Assembly (NCBI GenBank): GCA_963769425.1
Contig: CAVYLP010000004.1
Location: 128,001 to 192,000 of the forward strand
DNA length: 64,000 bases
Source of the DNA: Candidatus Bathyarchaeota archaeon
Lineage (GTDB): Archaea > Thermoproteota > Bathyarchaeia > TCS64
Direction of reading: 5' to 3'
Part shown: one piece after another, positions 1,214 through 51,146 of the stretch
Layout of the letters: each line of letters starts with the position of its first letter
Position numbering within the stretch: the stretch's first letter is position 1
The notes under the pieces: generated by a model
The model's input: only the letters and a program-made list of their open reading frames with translations
The model's database searches: none
What the model was told of the DNA's origin: nothing
Position numbers and translations under genes: made by a program

Positions 1214-2650
1214 ATGGCGGACATCTACATTCGGAACGGTTACCTGCTCACGATGAGGGGTGATGGCCTCGGCACGATCGAGGATGGCGCCCTCGCCGTC
1301 GAGGGGCAGGAGATCGTGGCGGTCGGTAAGACCGACGACCTCGACAGGAAGTACCGCAACTCTGAGAGGGTCATAGAGGCTAAGGGGAAGGCGGTCCTCC
1401 CCGGCTTCGTCGATGCCCACATCCACACAGGGCACACCATCATACGCGGCGAGGCGCAGGACGTCCCCGAGATAGAGTGGATGCTCAAGACAATGGCCCC
1501 CTTCAGCAAGTACATCAAGCCCGAGCACAGTATAGCAGGCGGTGCCCTCGGCGTCATCGAGGGCGTTAAGAGCGGCGTCACCACCTTCGGCGAGATAGGC
1601 GTCAACGAGGGCCACGTCGCGGAGAAGGTCTTCGTCCCCGCCGGCGTAAGGGCAAACATCGCTGACACAATAAACGAGATTGGGCCCAACAGCCGCCCCG
1701 ATGCGAACAAGCTCTATATCTTCGACGAGTCCCTCGGCGAGCAAAAACTCAAGGCGGGCATCGAACTCGTGGAGAAGTGGGACGGCGCAGGGGACGGCAG
1801 GATAAGCTGCATCTTCTCCCCCCAAGGGGCGGACATGATGAGTAAGTCGCTCCTCCTTCGCGTCAAGGAGGAGGCGGTGAAAAGGGGAAAGCTCTGCCAC
1901 ATACACGTCGCCCAGGGGGCGCGCGAGGCCATACAGGTCAAGCTCAGATATGGCACAACCTCAATCAAGTACCTCGACTCCATCGGCTACCTCGACGACA
2001 ACATCATAGCGGCCCACTGCCACCAGACGACGGACGACGAGGTCGCCATACTCGCCAAGAGGGGGGTACGCTACATCAGCTGCCCCGCCAGCATAGCCCT
2101 CATCGACGGCATAGTCCCTCCACTCGCACTCTTCCGGCAGCAGGGCGGGAGATATGCGGGCCTTGGCAGCGACCAGGCCCCCGGGAGCACGGGGCATAAC
2201 ATGCTCGTTGGGATGAAGACGGCAGCTCTCCTCAACAAGGTACGCCACAGGGACCCGACGGTTCTCCCCGCTTGGGAGATGCTCCGAATAGCCACGATAG
2301 GCGGAGCCAACGCCATAGGACTGGGCGACAAGATAGGGAGCCTCGAAGTAGGGAAGAAGGCCGACATTATCCTAATGAATTTGAGGGTCCCCCACATGGT
2401 CCCCATAATCTCCAAGCCGGTCCCAAACATAGCCCCCAACATAGTATACTACAGTAGGGGTGACGAGGTCGAGGACGTGATAGTAAACGGCGGCTTCGTC
2501 GTCGAGGGTGGCAGATGCGTGACCCTCAATGAGGAGGAGGTGATGGAGCGCGCCCAGAGGGCGGCGGACGAGATAACAGGGAACGCTGCTGACGACTTCA
2601 TGGCGGCCGACGGCTACCTTGCCAAGGCTGTTAGAAAGGGGTTACTCTAG
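1214..2650 (+). CDS. Amidohydrolase, MtaD/SsnA-like metal-dependent deaminase
   Basis: PGFVDAHIH, HIHVAQ, AAHC, GLGSD, GSLEVGKKAD motifs. Confidence 0.85.
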   Translation: MADIYIRNGYLLTMRGDGLGTIEDGALAVEGQEIVAVGKTDDLDRKYRNSERVIEAKGKAVLPGFVDAHIHTGHTIIRGEAQDVPEIEWMLKTMAPFSKYIKPEHSIAGGALGVIEGVKSGVTTFGEIGVNEGHVAEKVFVPAGVRANIADTINEIGPNSRPDANKLYIFDESLGEQKLKAGIELVEKWDGAGDGRISCIFSPQGADMMSKSLLLRVKEEAVKRGKLCHIHVAQGAREAIQVKLRYGTTSIKYLDSIGYLDDNIIAAHCHQTTDDEVAILAKRGVRYISCPASIALIDGIVPPLALFRQQGGRYAGLGSDQAPGSTGHNMLVGMKTAALLNKVRHRDPTVLPAWEMLRIATIGGANAIGLGDKIGSLEVGKKADIILMNLRVPHMVPIISKPVPNIAPNIVYYSRGDEVEDVIVNGGFVVEGGRCVTLNEEEVMERAQRAADEITGNAADDFMAADGYLAKAVRKGLL

Positions 2651-2717
2651 TAGCCTATCGTCTCTTTTGATTATTTCATATAAATAAAGACGATGAGTTA
2701 TTTCTGAATAAAAAAAC

Positions 2718-2800
2718 CTATCCCCAGATGTTACACTGAGAAAAATGTTATAAATCATAGATGCAGTACGATACCGAAGAACCGGCTCTTTGGGAGAGAT
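2718..2800 (+). repeat. Diverged copy of the 60-64 kb intergenic repeat
   Basis: Ordered matches CTATC..TGAG..TTATA..TAGATG..ATACCGAAG..CTTTGGGA to the copies at 60241 and 62689. Confidence 0.5.
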
Positions 2801-2809
2801 GCTACAGCG

Positions 2810-3187
2810 TTGGTTCTGAACTTCAAGGGGTACGACCCCACAGAGGTAGGACTTAGAAAGTTCCTATCGATCCAGGAAACAGAGGTGCTAATGTGCCTCT
2901 GGGGTAAGGAGAAAAACGGGGCAGCGCCCGAGGAGATTAGAGTGCAGCTGGCCGCAGGGGGTTCCCCTCATAGCCCTGCGACTATTAAGAAGGCGCTCGA
3001 CGGCCTAGGGCGATGGGGTCTGGTGGAATCCAGGATGGTCGCCAGGAGCACGCCGAGGCTCTGCTACTTCGCCGCTGTGGATGAAGAGAAGGCGACGGCC
3101 CACCTCGTCGGGAGGTTCCTGTCCTCGGTGAAGGCCGCTCTACCCGAGGAGTTGGCGAGGGCGGCTAGGGAGCAGGGGCTCATGTAG
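2810..3187 (+). CDS. Winged-helix transcription regulator (BlaI/MecI/CopY-like)
   Basis: QETEVLMCLW...ATIKKALDGL..WGLV pattern; TTG start. Confidence 0.6.
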   Translation: MVLNFKGYDPTEVGLRKFLSIQETEVLMCLWGKEKNGAAPEEIRVQLAAGGSPHSPATIKKALDGLGRWGLVESRMVARSTPRLCYFAAVDEEKATAHLVGRFLSSVKAALPEELARAAREQGLM

Positions 3188-3602
3188 GCTTCGGTAGGTG
3201 CCTGGACAGTACCGCTTCGAGCCCGAGCCTACCGACGGCTCCCAGCTCCTGGTCGACCTGTTTTCCGCCATTGAAGAGTATGAAGTTGGGGATGCTCATG
3301 ACCCTGAAGCGAGCTTGAGTCGCCCTGTTCTGATCGGTGTTTATCTTCGCGAAGTAGGCTTCGCCGGCGTGATCTCTCGCCATTGCCTCCACCACCGGTG
3401 CCATGGACTTACACGGCATGCACCAGTCCGCCCAGAAGTCGACTAGGAGGGGACGCGTGGCACCTGCCACGGCTTGATCGAAGTTCGCGTCCGTGAGGAC
3501 GTTCACGATACCGTCCCGGAGGATGCTTTGCTTCGGTGGCGGGCTCATCATCCTCTCGAGCATCCGCCGCTTTATCTCCTCAAGCTCCCGGTCCTCGGAC
3601 AT
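3180..3602 (-). CDS. trxA: Thioredoxin
   Basis: LVDFWADWCMPCK, SIP motif, archaeal N-terminal DRELEEIKRR extension. Confidence 0.9.
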   Translation of the reverse strand: MSEDRELEEIKRRMLERMMSPPPKQSILRDGIVNVLTDANFDQAVAGATRPLLVDFWADWCMPCKSMAPVVEAMARDHAGEAYFAKINTDQNRATQARFRVMSIPNFILFNGGKQVDQELGAVGRLGLEAVLSRHLPKPT

Positions 3603-3636
3603 ACAGGGAGAGATGAGTAGAAGCTGGTAAAGAGAG

Positions 3637-4104
3637 TTACTTCTTTAGGAAGTTGGGGTTCGTGGAGTCGTACTTGTCGGCCTTAGCCTGGTCACCAGTT
3701 ATCTCCGTGAGCCACTTATCGGCTCCGTCCCTCTTCCAGTCCCCCGCCTTCGTGTGTGCCTTGATGTAGTTCGCGGGCATCGGGTGCGTCCCAACGATCA
3801 CGGGGAGGCCGACGACATTCTCTATGTACTTCTTGTGGTCCTCGATGTGGGGGCAAATGGGGTATCCGGCCAGGTAGCAGCTTGCGAGGAGGATGACCTC
3901 CGCGCCATACTTCTTCATGTCCGCGGGCGCCGCCTCGAGGCGCTCCCCGGGGCAGCCGCCACACGCCATCCAGCCAACGACTTCTATCGGCTCATCCTTC
4001 GGGTACTTGGCGAAGACGCCGTCCCTCTCGATCACCGACTTGAAGCACTTGTTACCGGTGCAGGTCCTGTTCCGGTCACAGATCATTATGCCTACCTTTA
4101 CCAT
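3637..4104 (-). CDS. CGGC-domain protein
   Basis: KVGIMIC..C.G.KC, CGGCPG, SC..CP, VGTH. Confidence 0.85.
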   Translation of the reverse strand: MVKVGIMICDRNRTCTGNKCFKSVIERDGVFAKYPKDEPIEVVGWMACGGCPGERLEAAPADMKKYGAEVILLASCYLAGYPICPHIEDHKKYIENVVGLPVIVGTHPMPANYIKAHTKAGDWKRDGADKWLTEITGDQAKADKYDSTNPNFLKK

Positions 4105-4149
4105 GCCTCATACACTCGGCGAGGTTGGAGATAATGCTTCCCCGGGAAA

Positions 4150-4473
4150 TCAGCCCTCTAAGCCCCGCCTGACGCGTGTGAGCAACTCCACCGAGGGCGA
4201 CGCGTAGGGGCTGATCCACCTCTCGTAGACCTCCCTAATCGGCACGACGTTGAGGTAGTTCCAGCGTAGCCTGCCCTCCCTTTTTACTATGACGAGCTCC
4301 GCCTTCTCGAGGACCCGGAGGTGTTGCATAACGGTGCAGCGGTCGAGGCCGGAGAAGTGTGCGCAGATGTCCCCGGTGGTCATGGGCTTGTCCCTTAGGA
4401 GATCGAGTATCTCACGCCTCCTGCCGTCTGCAAGCGCCTTGAAGACGCGCTCCTGCTTATCAGCTTCGGACAT
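4150..4473 (-). CDS. ArsR/SmtB-family regulator
   Basis: VFKALADGRRREILDLL..TVMQHLRVLEKAELV..REGR. Confidence 0.9.
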   Translation of the reverse strand: MSEADKQERVFKALADGRRREILDLLRDKPMTTGDICAHFSGLDRCTVMQHLRVLEKAELVIVKREGRLRWNYLNVVPIREVYERWISPYASPSVELLTRVRRGLEG

Positions 4474-4479
4474 CCACAG

Positions 4480-4505
4480 TATATGTTATAATAGTATAAC
4501 ATATA
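4480..4505. promoter_or_regulatory. Probable ArsR operator (11-bp perfect inverted repeat)
   Basis: TATATGTTATA-atag-TATAACATATA in the 57-bp gap between divergent ArsR and SRPBCC genes. Confidence 0.7.
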
Positions 4506-4530
4506 TATTGCTGTCGCCAACCATCAAGAG

Positions 4531-5019
4531 ATGAAGCTCAAGTTCCAGGTCCAGGCAAAGATACAGAAACCCTTAGCCGAGGTCTTTAACGCCGTCTATA
4601 ACCCCAAGAAACTCAGCGCATACTTCACCTCCGGTGGCTCGAACGGCCCACTCGACGAGGGGTGCACCGTCCTCTGGACATTCGCCGACATGGCGGGGCA
4701 GAGCGAGACCGTCCCCGTCAGGGTCCAGAAGACGATCCAGAACAAGCTCATCAGGTTCAAGTGGGCTGCGAGCGAGGGCATCTATGCCCCGGAGGAGGGC
4801 AAGACCCCCCACCCCGGCGGATATGACACGACAGTCGACATCACCTTCGAAGCCCTCGGAGAGAACGAGACGCTCGTCAAGATCATCGAGGGAGAGTGGC
4901 GCCCAACCGAAGACGGTCTACAGGGTTCCTACCAGAACTGCCAGGGCTGGACGAACATGAGCTGCTGCCTCAAAGCATATCTCGAATACGACGTCAACCT
5001 AAGAAAGGGATTCTTCTGA
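4531..5019 (+). CDS. SRPBCC/AHSA1-domain protein
   Basis: EVFNAVYNPKKLSAYF, IRFKW, T.V.I.E..W, GW..M..CLKAYLE. Confidence 0.85.
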   Translation: MKLKFQVQAKIQKPLAEVFNAVYNPKKLSAYFTSGGSNGPLDEGCTVLWTFADMAGQSETVPVRVQKTIQNKLIRFKWAASEGIYAPEEGKTPHPGGYDTTVDITFEALGENETLVKIIEGEWRPTEDGLQGSYQNCQGWTNMSCCLKAYLEYDVNLRKGFF

Positions 5020-5681
5020 TGGCTAAAACAAGGAACCACTACTACTCCGAGGAAGAACTTAGGAACATAGCCTCCGAGCTCACCTCCGCCGAGGCTGTGC
5101 CCGTCAACGTGGAGATCGAGGCGGAGCACAGGGTCCTCGACCTAAGCGAAGTTGACAAGATACTCAGGGACTCGGAGAACATCTTCCTGCAGGACTGTGG
5201 GTGCCGCAAGCTCCACCACAACTGCGACTCCCCCCTCGACACTTGCCTCGCCGTGAATGTGGGACCCGACTACGCGGAGAAGTGGCCGGACAACCACTCT
5301 CGCAGGGTCAACGTGGAGGAGGCCCTCGACGCGCTAAAAAGGAGTCACGAGGCGGGGCTCGTACACATGGCCTACGTCTTCAAGGGTGAGGAGAAGCCCC
5401 AACTAATCTGCAGCTGCTGCACATGCTGTTGCCACACCCTTGGCGGCATAGTCGACCATGGGATAACAACACAAGTCCTCACCTCGAAGTTCATAGCAGT
5501 GGACGATGAGTCGAAGTGCATCGACTGTGGGAAGTGCGCTGAGAGGTGTGCCCTCGGCGCTCGGCGCATGGTCGATGGTAAGAAGAGGTACGATAAGACG
5601 AGGTGTTTCGGTTGTGGGTTATGCGTCTCCACTTGTCCCAAAGGGGCCATAGGGCTCGTTGAGAGGAAGAGGCTAGACTAG
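5019..5681 (+). CDS. 4Fe-4S ferredoxin-domain protein
   Basis: CGCR, ICSCCTCCC, CIDCGKCAERC, CFGCGLCVSTCP; ATG overlaps the upstream TGA. Confidence 0.85.
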   Translation: MAKTRNHYYSEEELRNIASELTSAEAVPVNVEIEAEHRVLDLSEVDKILRDSENIFLQDCGCRKLHHNCDSPLDTCLAVNVGPDYAEKWPDNHSRRVNVEEALDALKRSHEAGLVHMAYVFKGEEKPQLICSCCTCCCHTLGGIVDHGITTQVLTSKFIAVDDESKCIDCGKCAERCALGARRMVDGKKRYDKTRCFGCGLCVSTCPKGAIGLVERKRLD

Positions 5682-6666
5682 CCGACCGCAGTGGTAAGTC
5701 CAGTCCCCAGGGTAGACCGTGGGCTGATACCTCGTGTCGAAGATCACCGACCTATATGGCACCCTGCATTCCTCAAGGACACGTCCCGCCGTATCCTTAA
5801 GGACGCCAAGAAGCGCCCCCTTCTCGACTACGGCGCCGAGTTCTATCCTGTTGTACATTACGCCGCCGTGCTCTGTCTTCGGCCAGCTGCTCCCGTCGCT
5901 GACTAGCTGCTCCGAGTCTGAGCCTACGGGCTCCTCGTTGATCATGCCTATGCCTATGAGGACATTCATCACACCCTGCACACCGGTCTCGACGAGATCG
6001 TCCCAGAGTCTGCCACCTCCGCCCAGCTCAGGGCTCAGTGTAGGTATCCCGACAAGCCCAGCCTGTATGCTCAGGCTCCCCATCATGCTTGGGCGGGTGT
6101 TTACGCCGCCGAGGACTGGCACACCCTGTCCGAAGAGCCTGTATAGCTTCTTGTTCTGATCCCCTACAAGCTTCTCCGTCTCCGGGGTCCCGCGGGCGTG
6201 TATGTACCTCGCCATGAATGCTCGGCCCCCCTCGTGGAGGTCGACGACGAGGTTGGAGCCCTTTGATCGCCTCGTCCCAGATGGTCGCCGCGATTCTCTC
6301 CATGAGCAGGCCCCTGTGATCACCGGGCCAGACCCTGTTCATGTTTAGGTTCTCGTATCCCATTGGTGGCGGCGAGGCACGCTCCGCAGAATTGAATGCT
6401 AGGGGATTGGAGACTGGAATGGAGGTTAGTGATCCCCTGAGCTCCTTCGGGTCCACCCCATCGAAGACCCTGTTACTGATCTCCATACCACCGTACTCGT
6501 CGCCGTGCTGGACTCCCAGCATTGTGGCCCTCGGTCCATCCCTCGCCCCGACGGCGACCCGGACCGTTAGCGATATCGGGGTACCATCCGCAAACTCGCC
6601 AACCTTCGCCTGAAACGTCTCGGTGGAGCCCCGAGTAACCCTGCGCCCAAAAACCGTTAGGGACAT
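5673..6666 (-). CDS. Succinylglutamate desuccinylase/aspartoacylase-family deacylase (frameshift near 6260)
   Basis: HGDE, NPLA, NMNRVWPG in ORF 6028-6666; VVDLHEGG, PELGGG in ORF 5673-6323. Confidence 0.8.
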
Positions 6667-6741
6667 ACAGATGATAGTTTCATACCCGAGGTGATAAAAC
6701 CTCGACGCCCTTAATTAGTTGATTCAGGGTGCTCTAAAGAT

Positions 6742-7288
6742 ATGGCGTCCTGGAAGAAGGTTGCGGAACTCGTCATGTTGCACAAGGAGGCGAGACCCGA
6801 GATGAGGGCGAGGGACGCCTACAAGTTCCTCTACCAGGGCGTCTTCGGTGTAGGGCATATAATGGGACCGGGTGCGTGGGACTACCTACAGAAGGAGACG
6901 ACAGGTATCGATCTCAACGACCAGCTAGGCGACCCACTGATGGAGAGCGTCTCCCTCGACGGCTCAGTCGTACGTGTCAACCTCCGACCCTATATGCGGG
7001 AGGGTTATCTCCTCAATTACCTGATGGAGGCGATGAGGAACTCGGAGGTAACAGGGTGACTCCGTCCAATTTGTGGAGATATGGGATGCTTTCGCTGAGC
7101 TCGTCTGGTCGGGGCAGCTAGACTTTGAACACAGTGAGGTAGACGCTATCAACACGAGTCTCGATAGGAACAACCCACAGCCTCAGCACCACACCCCCCA
7201 ATATCGGGAGGCCTACCACCCCGCCTACCGCGTCGTCAGGAGGCGGGAGATACTGAAGATACTCGGCCTCGAGACTTACCAGTTATAA
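6742..7288 (+). CDS. Conserved hypothetical protein (split by a frameshift near 7055)
   Basis: DAYKFLYQGVFGVGH..VRVNLRPY continues to HHTPQYREAYHPAYRVV if one G of GGG at ~7054 is removed. Confidence 0.65.
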
Positions 7289-7312
7289 CCTAGTTGGAAT
7301 TAATTATTCCCC

Positions 7313-8755
7313 ATGGCCAGCCTTGAGGGGATGAAAAGCGACGCGTTAAGCTGGATCGACAGGAACATCGATGTGATCATCGGAATCAGCGACAAGATAT
7401 GGAGCTACGCTGAGCTTGGCTTCGAGGAACACGATTCTTCTAGGCTCCTCTCTGGTGAGTTGGAGAAGCACAGCTTCAGGGTCGAGCGCGGCGTTGCAGG
7501 GATTCCAACTGCCTTCGTCGCCTCGTGGGGGTCGGGGAAACCCCTCATCGGCGTGATGGGGGAGTACGACGCCCTCATGGGCGTATCGCAGGAGAAGGTT
7601 CCCACGAGGGACCCAATCGTGGAGGGCGGCAACGGCCACGGGTGCGGCCACAATATACATGGTGCCTCCGGGATGGCGGGTGCCATCGCCGCGAGGTACG
7701 CCATGGAGAAGAACGATATCAAGGGCACGATCAGGTTCTACGGCACACCCGCCGAGGAGAGCGGCAGCGGAAAGGTCTGGATGGTCCGCGCCGGAGTCTT
7801 CGACGGCGTCGACGCAGTCCTCAGCCACCACCCAGGAGCCATGAACTACGCCCCCCTCGGAAGCAGCCTCGCAAACAACAGCGTCAAGTTCCACTTCCAC
7901 GGCAAGACGAGCCACGCCGCGGGGAGCCCCGAGCAGGGCAGGAGCGCCCTAGACGCGGTGGAGCTCATGAACGTCGGCGTCAACTACCTGCGTGAGCACG
8001 TCGTGCAAGACGCCCGGATGCACTACGTCATCGAGGCCGGAGGCGGCCAGCCCAACGTCGTCCCCGACTACGCACGCAGTTGGTACCTGATCCGCGCTCC
8101 CGAGAGGGATCAGGTTGACAGCATCTACGCACGAATCCTCAAGATAGCCGAGGGCGCCACACTGATGACGGAGACCACCTTCGAGGTCGAATTCCTCAAG
8201 GCCGTCTACAACAAGCTCCCTAGCAGGGCCCTAAGCGACCTCGTCGCCTCAAACATGCGCCTAATCGACGCCCCAAAGTGGAGCAGGGAGGAACTCGCCT
8301 TCGCGACGGAGCTGGGGAAGAGCGTCCCCGCCGAGCAGAAGCGGGACTCGCTGCGCAAGTCGAAGCGCCCCGGCTGGGAGAAGCTCGAGGGCGTCGTGAT
8401 GGATGATAGCGTACCCGACGCTTGGGACGAGGGGGACGTGAGCCACGGCTCCACGGACGTGAGTGACGTCAGCTGGAAGGCTCCCACGATGGAGTTTTAC
8501 ACCGCCACGTGGCCCCTCGGTACCCCGGGGCACAGCTGGATGAACGTCGCCGCCTCGGGCACCGGCATCGGGCACAGGAGCCTCATATTCGCCTCTAAGG
8601 TGATAGCTGCCTCTGCCATCGACCTCCTCACTAAGCCGGAGCTGCTCAAGGGGGCGTGGGAGGAGCAGAGCAGAAGGACGATGGGAAAGACTTACAGGAG
8701 CCCCCTGCCCCCCAATGCTAAGCCACCACTCGGGATGTGGGGGAAGAAGAGCTAG
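7313..8755 (+). CDS. M20 amidohydrolase, AbgB-like (p-aminobenzoyl-glutamate hydrolase subunit B family)
   Basis: GEYDAL, GHGCGHN, GTPAEE, GRSALDAVELMN, GSTDVSDVSW, PGHSW. Confidence 0.9.
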   Translation: MASLEGMKSDALSWIDRNIDVIIGISDKIWSYAELGFEEHDSSRLLSGELEKHSFRVERGVAGIPTAFVASWGSGKPLIGVMGEYDALMGVSQEKVPTRDPIVEGGNGHGCGHNIHGASGMAGAIAARYAMEKNDIKGTIRFYGTPAEESGSGKVWMVRAGVFDGVDAVLSHHPGAMNYAPLGSSLANNSVKFHFHGKTSHAAGSPEQGRSALDAVELMNVGVNYLREHVVQDARMHYVIEAGGGQPNVVPDYARSWYLIRAPERDQVDSIYARILKIAEGATLMTETTFEVEFLKAVYNKLPSRALSDLVASNMRLIDAPKWSREELAFATELGKSVPAEQKRDSLRKSKRPGWEKLEGVVMDDSVPDAWDEGDVSHGSTDVSDVSWKAPTMEFYTATWPLGTPGHSWMNVAASGTGIGHRSLIFASKVIAASAIDLLTKPELLKGAWEEQSRRTMGKTYRSPLPPNAKPPLGMWGKKS

Positions 8756-9393
8756 AGCTTGTAGACGTCACCAGGCTTCAGGATGACAACCTTCGTTGCG
8801 CCGCCGGCCTCCACCTTCTTCTTGAAGACCATCGGGTCCGTGTCCCAGATGTGCATCGGGATGGCGACCTTCGGCTTGATCGCGAGGACGAGGTCGGCGG
8901 CCTCGTCGTTGTCCATAGTGTAGGTGCCACCGGTGGCGCAGAGCATCACGTCGATGCCCTTCAGAGCCCTCAGCTCGGGGACGAACTCCGTGTCCCCGGT
9001 GTGATAGATGGTCTTACCCTCGGCGCGGATGAGGTACCCTACGCCGAAGCCCTTCGGGTGGAATGGGACCCCCGGGGCCCTCAACCTCTTCACGTTGTAT
9101 GCCCAGACCGCCTCGACCTCGACGTCCCCGACCTTCGTCTTCTCCCCGGGCTTGAGGGTGATCGGCTTCGCCCCCGCCTTCGCGCAGTCAGCCGGGGCGA
9201 TGAAAGTCGTCGAGGGACCGAGGGCCTGCCTCAGCTTGTCCTCCTTGCAGTGGTCCTGGTGGGAGTGGCTGACGAGGACGACGTCCCCCTTCGGCGTGTA
9301 CTCACCCTCATAGGGGTCGAGGTAGATCGTCTTACCCGCGGCCTTCACCATCCAGCTAGAGTGACCGAGCCATTTTATCTCCATAATACTCAC
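8752..9393 (-). CDS. MBL-fold metallo-hydrolase
   Basis: WLGHSS, SHSHQDH, YHTGDT, IPMH. Confidence 0.85.
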   Translation of the reverse strand: MSIMEIKWLGHSSWMVKAAGKTIYLDPYEGEYTPKGDVVLVSHSHQDHCKEDKLRQALGPSTTFIAPADCAKAGAKPITLKPGEKTKVGDVEVEAVWAYNVKRLRAPGVPFHPKGFGVGYLIRAEGKTIYHTGDTEFVPELRALKGIDVMLCATGGTYTMDNDEAADLVLAIKPKVAIPMHIWDTDPMVFKKKVEAGGATKVVILKPGDVYKL

Positions 9394-9429
9394 GTGGATG
9401 ACTCAGGCCGCGGGGATTTATCTCTCTTC

Positions 9430-10633
9430 TCATGCAGCGGGTTTGGACTCCCTGATTGTCAGATAGAGCAACCCAAAGGCGAAGCGGAGAACAGTCGTGA
9501 AAACGAGTACCATGCTTATCGCGGAGTAGTTGGTTGATGTGATGAACCCCTGGGTGATGGTGCCCATGAGATATGAGCCAAGGAAGCTTGAGACGCCGAC
9601 GGCGGTCACGCTGGCGGCTAGGTAGGTTGCCCTCAGCTTGGCAGGCGCGATGTCGATGATATAGGTCGACTGCCCGCACGACCACGCCGCCGTCGCGACC
9701 CCGACCAGCCCCTCTATGGCGATTATGTGGAGCCAACTGGTCGCGAAGGCGTAGCCGAGGGTGGAGACCGCCATCGCTACGCGGCTGAAGACTATTATTG
9801 GCCGCCTCCCGACCCTGTCCATCATCCTCCCGAAGATGCTCTGGAAGAGGACGCCGAAGCCTAGGTTCGAGACCGCCGTCGCGGCTATCTGCCAGACGCT
9901 CATCCCCAGCTTCCCTACGGTTATGTATGAGAAGAACGGCAACGCCGTCGCGGAGCCGGCGTTCCAAATGAATGTGATGATCAGGAATCGTCTCAGGTCA
10001 CGATCCCTCATGAGGGCGGCGAACTCGAATCTGCGCCTTCCCCCCACGGGGGGCTTCTCCTTCGTGAACGAGACTCAGAATGGCGGAGGCGAAGCTGGAG
10101 GCTGACGCGAGGAGGAGGAGGGCGGTGAATGATGCCTGTGTTCATCGGCCCCGTCTGGTTGAAGGCTATGATTAGCGCGGTCACCATCGCTGCGAAGCCG
10201 CCGATCTGGGCGACGGCGCTTATCCTCCCGATCACCTCGCCCCTCCCGACCTCCCCCGCGTAGTCGCCGATGAGGCTCCCCCAGGCAGGTGTCGCCATCG
10301 CGGTCGTCGCGCTGATCACGACGATTAACACGAGGAGCCAGAGGGGGGCGCCGACGAATGCGAGGGCGGCGAATGCTAACCCGCTCAGGACGCGCCCCGC
10401 GATGATTATACGTCTCTTCCCAAATGAGTCGGCGAGGTCACCGAAGACGACCTGCGGGAGGGCGAGCGCGATCTGCCTGCTCCCGTTTATGAGGCCCGAC
10501 TCCGCGACGGTTGCCCCCGCGGCGACAGCTATGGTGCCCGTGAACCTGTCGGTTATCGTGTCCGGGATGGACTGGGCTGCGCCCGCGAGGTAGAGTGCCC
10601 TCGACTCCTCAAGGTGCTCCTCGTCGCCTCCCA
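9430..10633 (-). CDS. MFS transporter (frameshifted near 10050-10140)
   Basis: Two hydrophobic halves with MFS motif A (GDLADSFGKRR; GRMMDRVGRRP). Confidence 0.8.
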
Positions 10634-10728
10634 TAGGTCCACCCCTGCACCACACAGATTATTTGAAGGTATCACCGCACCGCCTCCCAGAACCTTTTAA
10701 ATCCCCTCCCCCATCTTCTGTAGGCGCC

Positions 10729-10813
10729 GCAGGGGTTCCCGAGTGGCCAAAGGGGTCAGGCTTAGGACCTGATGGTTAGTCCTCCGTGGGTTCGAACCCC
10801 ACCCCCTGCACCA
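10729..10813 (+). tRNA. tRNA-Leu(TAG)
   Basis: Acceptor GCAGGGG/CCCCTGC, D-arm CCCGAGTGGCCAAAGGG, anticodon arm TCAGG-CTTAGGA-CCTGA, long variable arm, GGGTTCGAACCC, encoded CCA. Confidence 0.95.
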
Positions 10814-10872
10814 TTTTACTAGCGCGCGCCGCATCTGCGAACCTGATCTCTTATGGCTAATCAGAATACACG

Positions 10873-11319
10873 CTACATATCTTTCCTCTTCATAGTCGTG
10901 CAGTAGACTCGGAAGCCGATCTTCTCCCAGAACTTATTGCCACGGGGGTTGGACTCTAAGACCTCGAGACTAAGTTCTGAGCCCTTCGGGAAGTGCTTCT
11001 CCGAGATGAGGTTGAAAGAGGCTTCTCCTAAGCCTTTACTTCGTTTCTCTCGACGAATGAAGAACTGGCGGACATACACCGTTGGCTGATCGGGGAAGTA
11101 GTCGTCCCTGCCCTCCTTGTAGAGCATGTAACCGGCTTCCTCGCCGTCTACATTTATCATAACTGCACGCCAATCGCTTCTAAGAAGTCCAATCATCCTG
11201 TTATTTAGCTCCATTATGTTCATGGGGTTCCGACTTCCCTCGTCCTCGATGAGTTGTTTGTTCCAGTTGGCAAGGGTGGGGACATCTGCGAGTGTTGCGG
11301 GTCGGATCTCAATGTTCAT
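10873..11319 (-). CDS. GNAT-family acetyltransferase
   Basis: IRPATLAD, QFFI....RSKGLG, LEVLESNPRG.KFWEKIGF. Confidence 0.85.
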   Translation of the reverse strand: MNIEIRPATLADVPTLANWNKQLIEDEGSRNPMNIMELNNRMIGLLRSDWRAVMINVDGEEAGYMLYKEGRDDYFPDQPTVYVRQFFIRREKRSKGLGEASFNLISEKHFPKGSELSLEVLESNPRGNKFWEKIGFRVYCTTMKRKDM

Positions 11320-11558
11320 CTCAATCACGCCGGTTACCATGGGTTTTCTATCGAAGTTGTTTGACTTAAAGCGGTTATGACATGACTGGCTCAGTATTCT
11401 ACTTGTTTGCTCTAAGTGCAACAAATCCAAAGACCGCATCTGCGAACCATGCCCTAAACCGGAATCTTGTCAAGTAGGCTCATCAGTACGCGCGCGAGAA
11501 AATCCAGCAGCAGAAAGTAATGATTACTACCTTATATATTTCTTAACAAACCTCTGAA

Positions 11559-13077
11559 ATGATGATTTTCATGGCTCAAAACCCTAAGAATAAAATGTTC
11601 ATAGATGGCGAATGGGTTGACTCCTCCTCCGGCGAGAAGTTCGAAGTACGCGATCCATCGACAGGGAAAGTGTTCGAGAATGTTCCATCAGCGTCGTCAG
11701 AGGATGTCGATAAAGCGGTAGAATCCGCTAGAAATACATTCGATAATGGGAGTATGGAGTAAGGCTCCTCCAGCAGATAGAGCGAACGTCCTCCTGAAGG
11801 TCGCGTCGATGCTTGAGGAGAAGATAAACGAATTCGCGGAACTGGAGACGCGCAACTCCGGAAAATCGATCAAACAGTCAAGAAACTACGACCTACCCTA
11901 CACGATCGACAACATACGTTACATAGCTGGAGCGTCTCGCCTGCTCGAAGGCGACGCTATGGCAGAATACGTCGCAGATGGTACAAGCGCTGTGAGAAGG
12001 GAGCCCATCGGCGTCATTGCCGTGATCACGCCCTGGAACTACCCGTTGATGATGGTCATATGGAGAGCCTTCCCTGCTCTTGCGACTGGAAACAGTGTAG
12101 TACTCAAACCATCCTCCTACACGCCTCTTACCACATTAGAACTCGGACATATACTGCAGAAAGCCGGCGTACCGAATGGGGTCTTCAACATCGTCACAGG
12201 TCCAGGAAGTTCAGTCGGAGAGGATCTCGCTCGACACAAGAAAGTTGACATGATCGCTTTCACAGGCAGCACCGAAGTTGGGAAGCGACTATTGGAGCTC
12301 GGGTCGAAAACAGTGAAGAAGGTCTCTCTGGAACTCGGAGGTAAAGCCCCGTTCATAGTTCTTGAAGACGCCGACCTTGACGCCGCCACAGAGGGAGCGG
12401 TAATTGGGGGTCTCGTCAACAATGGGCAAGACTGCGCGAACTCTACGAGGTATTACATCCAAGAGTCTAGGCTCGAGGAGTTCCAAAGTCTACTCGTCGA
12501 GAAGCTAAGCAAGGTCCGTATAGGTGATCCATTTGATCCAGAAACAGATATGGGGCCGCTGATCTCCGAGGCGCAGCGTACAAGAGTCTTAGACTACATA
12601 GAGAAGGGAGTCGGAGATGGAGGCAGACTGCTTTATGGTGGGAAGAAGCCGAGGATAGCCAGACATCAAGGCGGCTTTTACTTGGAGCCCACGGCGATCT
12701 ACACCGATAACGACGACTCGTCTATCGTGAAGGAGGAGATTTTTGGCCCCGTCTTCACAGTCCTCAAGACTTCAGATTTAGAGGACGCTGTACAAAGGAG
12801 TAATGATGTGGTCTATGGGCTTGGCGCATCCATCTGGACCAGAGACGTGACGAAGGCTATGAGGGCTGTAAGGGACCTGAGGTTCGGCACCGTTTGGGTC
12901 AACGAACACGTCACAGTTCCATCGGAGATGCCTTGGGCTGGCTACAAACAGAGCGGTCACGGAGCCTCTCTATCTCGCTACAGCCTCGAAGAGTTCACCT
13001 ACATCAAGCACGTCTACTTCGATCTAACTGGCTTAGCAAGGAAGTCGTGGTATTACCAGGTGTATGGGAAGAAGTGA
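11559..13077 (+). CDS. NAD(P)-dependent aldehyde dehydrogenase, aminoaldehyde/betaine-aldehyde-like (frameshift near 11750)
   Basis: ITPWNYP, FTGSTEVG, LELGGK, NGQDC, EEIFGP, GYKQSG. Confidence 0.9.
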
Positions 13078-48835: not shown

Positions 48836-49783
48836 GTGCCAAGCCTCAACGCCTCCATCATAGGCTCACTGGAGTACTCGAAGCAGCTCGGGAAGAAGAG
48901 CGGCGAGACCGATGTCACCTTTTATGACCTGAAGAAGGGTGAGACCGTCATCACCATCGTTGAGCCGAGCAGGTACCCGGAGAAGATACAGAGCCTCTAC
49001 TACGCCGCTGCCTTCGGTGACTACGCCGTCCTCGTCGCGGAGAAGTTGGACCAGTACTTCGGGGAGAGCCTCCTCATGATCAACGCATGCGGCATCAAGG
49101 AGGGCACCATTGTGCTCCGAAACTACATCACCGAGGACCAGTTGAAGATGTTCAGGAAAGGCACGGTCTTGGAGGGATACGAGGTTATGGAGGATGATCC
49201 CATTAAGCTCAGGGACAAGCTCATCGCTCTTGCGGAGAGGCCGAGGCAGCTCCAGACGGGGTCAGGCACACTCAGCGTCGAATCCGCCTTCAACGTCCGC
49301 GGCATAGGCACCGTCGCTCTAGCCACAGTCAAAACAGGTATGATCAGGAAACACGACCAACTCAAGGTCTTACCTGGGGATAAGGTAGCCGAGGTGCGGA
49401 GCATACAGAAACACGACGTAGACTTTGAGACAGCAGAAGTCGGGGACCATGTAGGCGTCGCCCTGAAGGGGGTTGAGGCGTCGGATCTGGACAGGGGCAC
49501 AGTCCTTTCTGGGGATAACCTCAAGATGACGACGTCGGTCACTGCGAAGGCAGAGATCATACCCTACTTCCAAACGCAGTTACACGAGGGCAGCACACTC
49601 CACTTAGGCTACTGGTTACAACTCAACCTCGCTCGAATAACCCGCATCGACGATAAAGGGGACAAGAAACCAGAGATGACTATCACTTTAGAGAGGCCAC
49701 TTGTCCACCCTCTTGGTGCACGCGCCGTCCTCGTGTACCTTGACGGGGGAAGATTGCGAGTCGCAGGAACGATACCCCTATAG
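48836..49783 (+). CDS. SelB/EF-Tu-like protein with degenerate G domain
   Basis: LGKK...DVT.Y, YPEKIQSL, domain II FNVRGIGTVAL..VRSIQ.HD..VGVALKG; no GxxxxGKS/T. Confidence 0.8.
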   Translation: MPSLNASIIGSLEYSKQLGKKSGETDVTFYDLKKGETVITIVEPSRYPEKIQSLYYAAAFGDYAVLVAEKLDQYFGESLLMINACGIKEGTIVLRNYITEDQLKMFRKGTVLEGYEVMEDDPIKLRDKLIALAERPRQLQTGSGTLSVESAFNVRGIGTVALATVKTGMIRKHDQLKVLPGDKVAEVRSIQKHDVDFETAEVGDHVGVALKGVEASDLDRGTVLSGDNLKMTTSVTAKAEIIPYFQTQLHEGSTLHLGYWLQLNLARITRIDDKGDKKPEMTITLERPLVHPLGARAVLVYLDGGRLRVAGTIPL

Positions 49784-49841
49784 TGAAGTAAATAGCGGGA
49801 TTAATTCGTTCTAATCCGGTTACTCGTTTACCCCCCGCATG

Positions 49842-50237
49842 GGTACCTGCCACTAAGAATCAGATTCCTACTAGGGTGGTATAGCACACTAGCTGGCTGG
49901 GCGTATATGCCTCGCTAGTAGGAACAAGGAAAAACACCACTTTTTGCACCTGCCACTAGGAATCGATCATGGTCGCGGCCTCTCAACAGTCGATTGTGGT
50001 ACCCAGTAGTAGGGTACTTGGTACCAAGTAGGAGGGTACCGTCGGTACCTAGTAGGGTGGTACCGCGGTACCCAGTAGCATGGTACCGTTGTTCGGATTC
50101 TGTGCATATTGGTACCATGTAGTAGGGAACTCGGTACCATGTAGTGTGGTATGTGGTACCCTGTAGGGTGGTTCGGGGGACCCACTAGGGTGGTATAAGG
50201 TTTTTTCATCGCGTCGGTACCATGTAGCTGGGTACCG
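49842..50237. repeat. Array of ~22-bp units, consensus GGTACC-NN-GTAG-NNN-GGTACC
   Basis: 13 GGTACC hexamers; units start at 49998, 50020, 50044, 50067, 50111, 50133, 50155, 50177, 50216, plus a degenerate unit at 49863. Confidence 0.9.
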
Positions 50238-50320
50238 CGTAGTTACGGCCTTCAGATAATAGTAAATTGTTGGTTAGCTTTAACAGCCACTCGATCAACT
50301 CCTAGGCATCCGGTGTACTC

Positions 50321-51146
50321 GATGGGATGCGTTGGCATTACACTCTCGACTGTCGACCCCGTGGGGGCAAACGTCTTCGAAATGCTGAAGGGCCGAGGCT
50401 TCTCCGAGGTCCGGGCGGGGATTTACGTAAAGGGAGACACCTATCTTGTCCCTGTGCCAAGATTCATCGTCCCCGAGGAGGAGTACAAGACCCCAACGGA
50501 GCCGAATCCCTACCCTCTCGACTATGACGCATTAGCCGGAGAGCTAGGAGTCAACTTCTTCGTCGTGGCGAGCCGCCACTGGTCGAAGAGTGGGCAGCCG
50601 AGCCTCACCGCCCACGCCACAGGAAACTTCGGGAAGGCGATATTCGGGGGGCATAACCGCGAACTTCAGGCGGTACCGCCGAATGCCTTGAGGAATGTCT
50701 ACCTAGCGCTACTGAGTAACCCGCCCCAGGGTTACCCGGTTAGTCTTGAGGCGACGCACCACAGTCCAACACAGTTTCGGGTCCCCATGTTCTTCGCCGA
50801 GGTGGGTAGTGGTCCAGATCAGTGGGCGGATCTCAACGCCTGTGAGTACCTAGTTGACGCCATCCTAGACGGGATCGCGTCAGCGGAATCTGTACCCGCG
50901 GCGATCGGTTTCGGAGGCGGTCACTACTGCCCAAAGTTCAGCGTCATGGAGAGGGATCACGCCTTCGGCCACATAGCCGCCAAGTATGCTTTTCCCGAGC
51001 TAACCGATGAGATGATAGCCCAGATGGCTGCAAAAACTGTTGGTGGCGTCGAGAAGGCGTACATCGAGAGTGGGGTGAAGGGATCGGATAAGAGGATGCT
51101 CGAGGCCGCGCTAGGCCGTCTTGGGATAGAGAGCGAGGTTGTCTAG
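50321..51146 (+). CDS. dtdA: Archaeal D-aminoacyl-tRNA deacylase (DTD2)
   Basis: ASRH.S..G.PSLTAH.TGN, SLEATHHSPT, AEVGS, GFGGGHYCPKF, FGHI..KY. Confidence 0.88.

Follow-up and report, generated by a model that had tools for sequence, protein, structure and literature searches.

Phased direct repeats of ~22 bp next to AT-rich DNA form the iterons of theta-replicating plasmids (e.g., the R6K gamma origin), whereas R1 parC and the omega heptad arrays of pSM19035 consist of short direct-repeat blocks by a promoter, to which a small dimeric protein binds cooperatively. The origin recognition boxes (ORBs) of archaeal replication origins (oriC) are inverted around an unwinding element, and BIME/REP sequences are mosaic repeat elements of enterobacteria. 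The pneumococcal BOX elements have fixed end modules and variable tandem boxB units and are viewed as mobile and parasitic with context-dependent effects (PMC3049150). Here we report an array of nine phased GGTACC-containing units in a 64,000-nt stretch of DNA (the window) from a Candidatus Bathyarchaeota archaeon. The explanation we favor, with modest confidence, is that the array is a copy of a non-coding, lineage-specific interspersed mosaic repeat family having phased putative protein-binding sites. Rather than an origin or a centromere, the window array is probably a mobile module of repeats to which a protein binds.

An earlier note on this DNA, made from the letters alone, had described an iteron-like array in a non-coding gap of ~530 bp and had proposed that it serves as a non-canonical replication origin, a centromere-like site or a locus that organises the chromosome. 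The gap lacking a long open reading frame (ORF) is 529 bp (49784-50312) and lies between a 315-aa ORF and the DtdA gene. GGTACC occurs 33 times in the window versus 13.99 +/- 4.05 expected (none of 100 shuffles reached 33), and 13 of the 33 sites fall in 49842-50236, as the note had implied. The array proper (49998-50237) is composed of nine phased units, GGTACC-N-WGTAG-NNN-GGTACC, one of which (at 50177) is degenerate (GGGACC). The spacings between unit starts (22, 24, 23, 44, 22, 22, 22, and 39 bp) are exactly those previously given, Tandem Repeats Finder returned periods of 22-23 bp, and a separate repeat search gave 7 + 4 copies in register. The phased direct units of the note are thus real, but the solitary GGTACC at 49842 that had been counted with them is part of a ~120-bp dispersed repeat that lies outside the array. 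The units abut with linkers of only 0-4 nt, and neither an Rfam CRISPR family nor a cas domain was found among the neighbors, in agreement with the note's view that this is no CRISPR. The parts of the array are:

49998..50088, + strand: first block of four units, GGTACC-N-AGTAG-NNN-GGTACC, starting at 49998, 50020, 50044, and 50067, in register with three paralogous arrays
50089..50110, + strand: 22-bp phase-keeping spacer (the 44-bp step), from the four-array alignments
50111..50198, + strand: second block of four units starting at 50111, 50133, 50155, and 50177, with degenerate right arms, the last unit entering the box
50192..50206, + strand: terminal box GGTATAAGGTTTTTT, BRE/TATA-promoter-like on both strands (BRE, transcription factor B recognition element)
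50216..50237, + strand: post-box unit GGTACCATGTAGCTGGGTACC (start 50216), a fixed ~9 nt after the T-run, where the similarity common to the four paralogues stops

The paralogues are found in the same genome (G000; 6 contigs, 2.55 Mb; positions outside the window are given as contig:position), which is archaeal by its gene content: TATA-binding protein (TBP), Orc1/Cdc6, archaeal DtdA, and BRE/TATA promoters. A genome-wide motif count, one of the checks the earlier note had proposed, gave 35 matches to GGTACCNNGTAGNNNGGTA (at most one mismatch) versus 0 for the reversed control. As 30 of the 35 matches fall in four loci, the window locus is not unique. The four loci are C3:~290.5 kb, C4:~178.0 kb (the window array), C4:~396.5 kb, and C6:~520.5 kb, and the matches to the GGTACC-type pattern are 33 forward and 2 reverse. 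The four arrays align unit by unit with 77-87% identity over 190-390 bp and their flanks are unrelated; by BLAST the shared similarity stops at about window position 50238-50240. All have a common architecture: four units, the 22-bp spacer, four units running into a GGTATAA(G/C)GTTTTTT box, a linker of ~9 nt, and one final unit. The spacer position is occupied in the paralogues by an imperfect palindrome of the type GTGCAC...GTGCA, and a spacer of this type is also present in the loose end of a contig from metagenome run X2. Paralogues differ in unit number by one. Parts of the window array recur in Logan contigs of further public metagenomes, and a contig from run X1 spans 49948-50366 with a 24-nt (one-unit) deletion. 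Since this contig bridges the array with one unit missing, the array is real, its unit number is variable, and the assembly artefact that the earlier note had considered can be set aside.

The earlier note had also argued that GGTACC and GTAG persist while the N positions vary, implying selection. The three paralogous arrays were compared with the window copy column by column, and the comparisons that differed were as follows:

Left GGTACC columns: 4 of 144
GTAG columns: 5 of 96
GG after GTAG: 0 of 47
NW positions: 12 of 48
NNN positions: 19 of 72
Linker columns: 5 of 24
Right-arm TA: 8 of 46
Right-arm CC: 7 of 46
Other columns: 46 of 143

Substitutions spare the GGTACC, GTAG, and GG blocks (0-5% differing) and fall on the N positions (25-26%), which bears out the note's observation and supports a constrained, putatively selected, binding motif. 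The alternative that the units act as hairpins was also weighed. The array gave fold z-scores of -4.8 and -5.5 (either strand), but strong folding on both strands is uninformative because the GGTACC units are palindromic. Family-wide, the left and right arms of a unit were complementary at 3.75 of 6 positions versus 3.46 of 6 for a control that paired arms of different arrays (control maximum 3.71 in 500 draws), and no arm complementarity was seen in arrays 5, 15, and 21 or in arrays such as TGTTCC...GCGTCA. Sequence-specific recognition of a ~14-bp site every two helical turns would fit these comparisons better than hairpin formation.

The four GGTACC arrays are members of a larger family. 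A search for chains of at least four phased core motifs found 23 phased arrays in G000, of which 19 arrays with 147 units were kept, in about 16 intergenic loci of 0.5-2.4 kb. The other four (rows 0, 2, 12, and 18) had poor cores and spacings and were excluded before the unit logo was made, as they were taken for 120-bp elements, an echo from the reverse strand, and a chain that probably arose by chance. Each array has 4-13 units, with 5-13 in a typical module, and the period of 21-24 bp (about two helical turns) holds family-wide, which together with the spared blocks lends support to the note's idea of phased binding sites. The core T-W-C-C-n-w-G-T-A-G-S-n-G-G is common to all modules; in its strict form it occurs 129 times in the genome versus 4 for the reversed control, nearly all within these repeats. 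The arm types vary by module (GGTACC, ATTCC/GTTCC, GATCC, or GACTCC). The box pattern (module consensus GG(T/G)ATAA(C/G)G(A)TTTTTT) gave 17 matches in G000 versus 0 for the reversed control, each at the 3' end of a phased array, with most arrays of the family ending in such a box, and the distance from box to post-box unit is fixed in all 17 modules. Modules are often chained, as at C4:9.4-10.1 kb where array A plus box and array B plus box are followed by a ~120-bp element. Modules of different arm types and the ~120-bp repeat are thus combined and scattered in long intergenic gaps.

The DNA upstream of 42 tRNA genes was used for a promoter weight matrix; its consensus, sgwAAasnTTTAAAtc, lies about 41 nt ahead of the 5' end of the tRNA. 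The window box scored 8.5 forward and 8.8 reverse, the reverse score being at the 99.94th percentile genome-wide, and the boxes are mostly around the 99.9th percentile in both orientations. Three GGGATAACGA variants score high forward (7.7-11.1) and only 2.5-3.7 in reverse. By its sequence the box is promoter-like, with the tRNA-derived matrix scoring both strands alike. The downstream gene is co-oriented with the module at 8 of 16 loci (ORFs <140 aa, among them at least a 125-aa cupin gene, were excluded) and several of the flanked genes retain promoters of their own. Hence, the module does not seem to be simply the promoter of the adjacent gene.

Comparison with relatives argues that the array is an insertion. 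Of 17 congeners, 13 have an identified dtdA orthologue. The EF-Tu-domain gene adjoins dtdA in G008 (86% protein identity), G016, and G001, with a gap of ~85-135 bp and no array; absence in relatives between these two genes was an outcome that the earlier note itself had listed as counting against its interpretation. On C3, G000 has a 1,028-bp non-coding insert (C3:290079-291106) upstream of a thiolase gene relative to G008, and the thiolase locus of G012 has a gap similar to that of G008, with less exact edges. The fourth array lies in a divergent MobA-like/cupin gap, which is 1,085 bp in G000 versus ~95 bp in G015. The thiolase and cupin loci are array-free in G008, G012, G015, and G016, and the orthologous gaps of array loci in congeners are ~85-200 bp between the same flanking genes. 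Since the congeners keep the flanking genes with a short array-free gap, the window copy seems to have arrived by insertion, and three of the four GGTACC arrays (those of the window, C3:290 kb, and the MobA-like/cupin locus) are by synteny insertions. The contig of G012 begins 270 nt upstream of dtdA, which could be a break at a repeat, and G012 was therefore left out of the absence scored at the dtdA locus. The ends of the 1,028-bp insert have no inverted repeat and a 2-nt TA overlap at the G008 junction; the ends of the window copy could not be placed owing to the diverged flanks. A search for Y1 (RAYT/IS200-type) transposases returned none, and the sole tyrosine recombinase is about 100 kb away.

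Among 40 relatives the GGTACC pattern gave more than two matches only in G002 (6, of a GATACC variant), versus 33 + 2 in G000. A class-wide scan with the box pattern gave 13 matches in G000 and 2 single matches in 300 other genomes of the class, and a 741-bp module chain was found in none of 70 other genomes of the taxonomic family, two of which are single-contig genomes. By these scans, and among the genomes searched, the family is confined to this archaeal species. In G002, short arrays of 3-5 units precede a box with an A-run, an arrangement like that of the 120-bp element of G000; the repeat family therefore predates the G000 species, in which it expanded. Two metagenome contigs carry related modules; one metagenome contig has the same chain upstream of a candidate ribosomal protein S15 gene (a by-eye reading), which has its own canonical promoter. 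Viral contigs gave 0 matches to a two-unit-plus-box pattern, and BLAST against plasmid and phage collections gave no match. A degenerate box pattern run against genome contigs at large gave at least 110 single matches, evidently by chance, in unrelated bacteria. On contig C40 of G002 (1701-11700) the motif positions are mirror-symmetric around about 5155 (1830/8530, 2951/7409, 5020/5288), implying a ~3.3-kb inverted duplication that is possibly a fold-back assembly artefact.

Array loci lie 0.3-1.4 kb from tRNA genes at C2:39.0 kb, C1:234.9-235.1 kb, C6:323.2 kb, and C1:183.2 kb, and one array of G002 is ~130 nt upstream of a tRNA. This closeness may hint at integration hot spots. The modules are on the + strand of the contig at 12 of the 16 array loci.

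In the model we favor, a single sequence-specific DNA-binding protein would occupy the units as its binding sites, loading cooperatively on one face of the helix, and the box would supply promoter-like, easily melted DNA to the module. The family might persist because the protein-DNA interaction is needed for its spread or through a local effect on transcription or DNA structure. Several points weigh against this model. Conservation of the blocks could in part be due to homogenisation between units (gene conversion) rather than selection, and the three paralogue comparisons share ancestry and thus are not independent. The box scores are equal on both strands and the orientation of the downstream genes is even, as given above. 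No protein partner and no transposase, terminal inverted repeats or clear duplication of the target site were detected, a 2-nt TA overlap at one junction being the most that was seen. Finally, the assemblies of most relatives come from short reads and are fragmented, so that repeats of this kind may be missing from them, and absence is firm only for the contiguous syntenic gaps read at the dtdA, thiolase, and cupin loci.

Some of these points would suit selfish or neutral satellite-like DNA having no binding function, whose arrays would grow and shrink by slippage and unequal exchange and be copied to new sites by recombination, with the core reflecting recent ancestry plus homogenisation. Such DNA could well be confined to one species among those searched, be inserted relative to the congeners, vary in unit number, be oriented without regard to its neighbors, and lack a partner gene. 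We nevertheless consider this explanation unlikely. Within the same units, substitutions in GGTACC, GTAG, and GG are 5- to 10-fold rarer than at the N positions, subfamilies with differing arms retain a common core, and the distance from the box to the post-box unit does not change in 17 modules. If decay were neutral, no particular columns would be spared, although gene conversion could produce part of this pattern.

A more ambitious version of protein binding, which we regard as doubtful, is that the arrays are mobile cis-acting platforms. The ~20 phased arrays per genome would each recruit many copies of one dedicated DNA-binding protein beside a bidirectional BRE/TATA-like box and serve as portable enhancers, silencers or insulators, or as anchors that structure the chromosome, the four GGTACC copies being one specificity class. 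In the literature searched, nothing comparable to cis-acting phased platforms, or to such arrays, was found for Bathyarchaeia or other archaea. The only AbrB-type gene next to an array, beside the C4:396 kb arrays, encodes the VapB antitoxin of a VapB (AbrB-type)/VapC (PIN) pair. This pair is at C4:395535-395902 on the minus strand, and its antitoxin frame is broken by a TAA after 32 codons.

The promoter-like box also raised the question of non-coding RNA genes, in which the box would be a promoter reading back into the array, or its T-run a terminator, and the resulting RNA, with ~10 22-nt motifs or hairpins in tandem, would act by titrating or scaffolding an RNA-binding protein. In most modules the reverse strand of the box, AAAAAAC-(C/G)-TTATAC, scores at about the 99.9th percentile against the tRNA BRE/TATA consensus, but the low reverse scores of the three variant modules (2.5-3.7, versus 7.7-11.1 forward) do not fit such a promoter. 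Likewise, the palindromic GGTACC arms can pair, giving the strong z-scores reported above, but these are equally strong on both strands, a trivial consequence of palindromes, and arm complementarity is not general in the family. A T5 run past the array on the minus strand (window ~49931-49935) could serve as terminator, although no terminator recurs after the other arrays. No Rfam 15 family matched the modules, and at the gathering threshold only tRNAs turned up in the window plus 15 related loci. The RNA explanation therefore seems improbable, and more so than either of the two preceding ones.

The surroundings of the array bear on the origin proposal. The features of the gap and its borders are:

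48836..49783, + strand: upstream flanking gene, the 315-aa ORF with EF-Tu domain 2 (Pfam GTP_EFTU_D2, 3e-11), outside the element
49842..49965, + strand: separate copy of the ~120-bp dispersed repeat (repeat search and BLAST), carrying single GTAG-type units
50275..50285, + strand: dtdA promoter motif TAGCTTTAACA, its TAGnTTTAAC kept in relatives, outside the element
50313..51146, + strand: downstream flanking gene, DtdA, D-aminoacyl-tRNA deacylase (Pfam PF04414, 7.3e-56), outside the element

The upstream ORF is the "SelB-like" gene of the earlier note, and its orthologues are directly upstream of dtdA in the three array-free congeners named above; the array's neighbors in the window are a ProRS-like gene, the EF-Tu-domain ORF, DtdA, RhaA, and an FGGY kinase. 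The motif TAGnTTTAAC is found at about equal distance upstream of dtdA in the array-less G008, G015, G003, and G017, and G016 and G001 have a related TTTAACA motif without TAG. It matches the tRNA promoter consensus and in the window sits downstream of the array. Given its conservation in relatives that lack the array, the AT-rich patch (50253-50284) that the earlier note had described as following the array holds dtdA's own promoter.

The ~120-bp repeat is bounded by 17-nt direct repeats, ACCTGCCACTARGAATC, at 49845-49861 and 49948-49964, and contains a palindrome, GGAATC-N-GATTCC, plus a TATAAGG-A5 box. By BLAST it has at least 12 other copies in the genome with 80-94% identity, including C4:10012-10136, C4:409616-409735, C4:108023-108143, and C1:110218-110338, and C4:396.0-396.2 kb holds several copies in tandem. 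Another small repeat family, the third, has ...GGAGCTGTTTTCAAGTCTCCCTTGTACCCTGTAGCAGGGTATAAG followed by an A8-9 run and a lone GTAG-type unit joined to a TATAAG box; its sites in G000 are C4:83919(-), C6:901522(+), C6:67859(+), and C1:235902(-). A loose pattern for a conserved 3' tail gave mostly chance matches, and a tail motif recurs after some modules.

The roles that the earlier note proposed for the array, as a replication origin of non-canonical type, a centromere-like site or a locus organising the chromosome, now seem very improbable. The idea has some appeal: there are exactly four GGTACC arrays of one architecture (four units, palindromic spacer, four units, AT-rich box, one unit), and these are direct repeats of iteron size beside an easily melted box. 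However, the GGTACC arrays are only one subfamily among at least 19 arrays of like design, three of the four are missing from the orthologous gaps of congeners, and the AT-rich patch invoked by the note is the dtdA promoter. The ORB consensus, TCCA..GAAA..GGGG, differs from the array motif, and the units here are all direct, with none inverted around AT-rich DNA. In a domain scan, the neighbors of the four GGTACC arrays, which differ from site to site, included no orc1/cdc6, par, rep, integrase or transposase gene, which extends to the paralogues the note's observation that cdc6 and parAB are not adjacent. The genome's only Cdc6_C match, its sole Orc1/Cdc6 gene, is on contig C1 (C1:24363-25535) and has no repeat array beside it. 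The non-coding DNA on either side of this gene (140 bp upstream, ~700 bp downstream) showed no obvious ORB-type repeat, only an AT-rich stretch at about C1:23690-23750. In the GC-skew check that the note had proposed, cumulative skew has no inflection or extremum at C3:290, C4:178, C4:396 or C6:520 kb, though the skew is weak overall (mean absolute value about 0.04).

Multiple origins per chromosome are reported for some archaea, and the four arrays could be likened to the four origins of one crenarchaeon, Pyrobaculum calidifontis (PMC4009838, PMC4010727). According to these two reviews, four origins were mapped and only one was defined by sequence, a site beside cdc6 with a 12-mer palindrome, Orb-1 (PMC4009838, PMC4010727). 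This gives no support for a link to the four GGTACC arrays.

A minus-strand ORF, of 80 aa at the window array and 116-121 aa at the paralogues, does cover all four arrays, and the earlier note had listed a conserved translated ORF among the outcomes that would count against it. Translation can be dismissed as the source of the periodicity, as the three minus-strand frames are all near stop-free (0-2 stops each) and thus open by composition, the 22-bp period does not hold a reading frame, the starts and ends differ among the four copies, and the low-complexity P/Y/T/H/W products have no Pfam match at E values up to 0.1.

These results remove a tempting but wrong assignment of an origin or centromere and document what appears to be an archaeal equivalent of the interspersed mosaic repeats known from bacteria, with an unusual design of phased 22-bp units, a constrained 14-bp core, and a promoter-like end box. 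Should a cognate protein exist, it could be sought with the arrays as a ready high-affinity bait. Promoter-like insertions near housekeeping genes (dtdA, thiolase, and the candidate S15 gene) could alter expression, and the repeat family also explains intergenic breaks in short-read assemblies of such genomes.

Among known systems, transposable elements of the miniature inverted-repeat type (MITEs) resemble the modules in being non-coding intergenic elements of less than about 1 kb that occur in multiple copies and whose presence varies between close relatives, but neither terminal inverted repeats nor a matching autonomous insertion sequence element was found, and target-site duplication is doubtful, with at most a 2-nt TA overlap at one junction. 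The R1 parC and pSM19035 centromere arrays likewise have two short direct-repeat blocks around or next to a promoter-like core; in contrast, the arrays reported here have no parM/parR, parAB, segAB or omega-like neighbor and are dispersed at about 16 chromosomal loci. Archaeal oriC, where Orc1/Cdc6 binds ORB and mini-ORB elements, shares with the arrays repeated protein-binding elements (putative in the arrays) near easily melted DNA, but the present repeats are direct, away from orc1/cdc6, not conserved at syntenic sites, and too numerous. The iterons of plasmids such as R6K (gamma origin) share the ~22-bp phased direct repeats beside an AT-rich box and the combination of conserved blocks with variable positions. 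Unlike iterons, the array copies have no rep gene beside them, number at least 19 in the genome, and have no match in plasmids, phages or viral contigs.

The closest described kind of element is the bacterial interspersed mosaic repeat, BOX, and more loosely BIME/REP. The present family and BOX of Streptococcus pneumoniae (boxA - boxB x n - boxC) are both small, non-coding, multi-copy, intergenic, and of narrow lineage, have variable tandem internal units between fixed ends, are nested with other repeats, and show no consistent link to the function of their neighbors; BOX is regarded as mobile although its transposase is not known (PMC3049150). The archaeal family has the same modular plan, that of BOX and BIME elements: a constant box and post-box unit, variable internal units, and chains formed with other repeats. 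The boxB module is longer than the 21-24-bp unit. Hairpin folding, which is central to BOX and REP, does not seem to be a general feature of the present family. The family further departs from BOX in its archaeal host, its helically phased units of 21-24 bp with a constrained 14-bp core, and an end box that resembles an archaeal BRE/TATA promoter.

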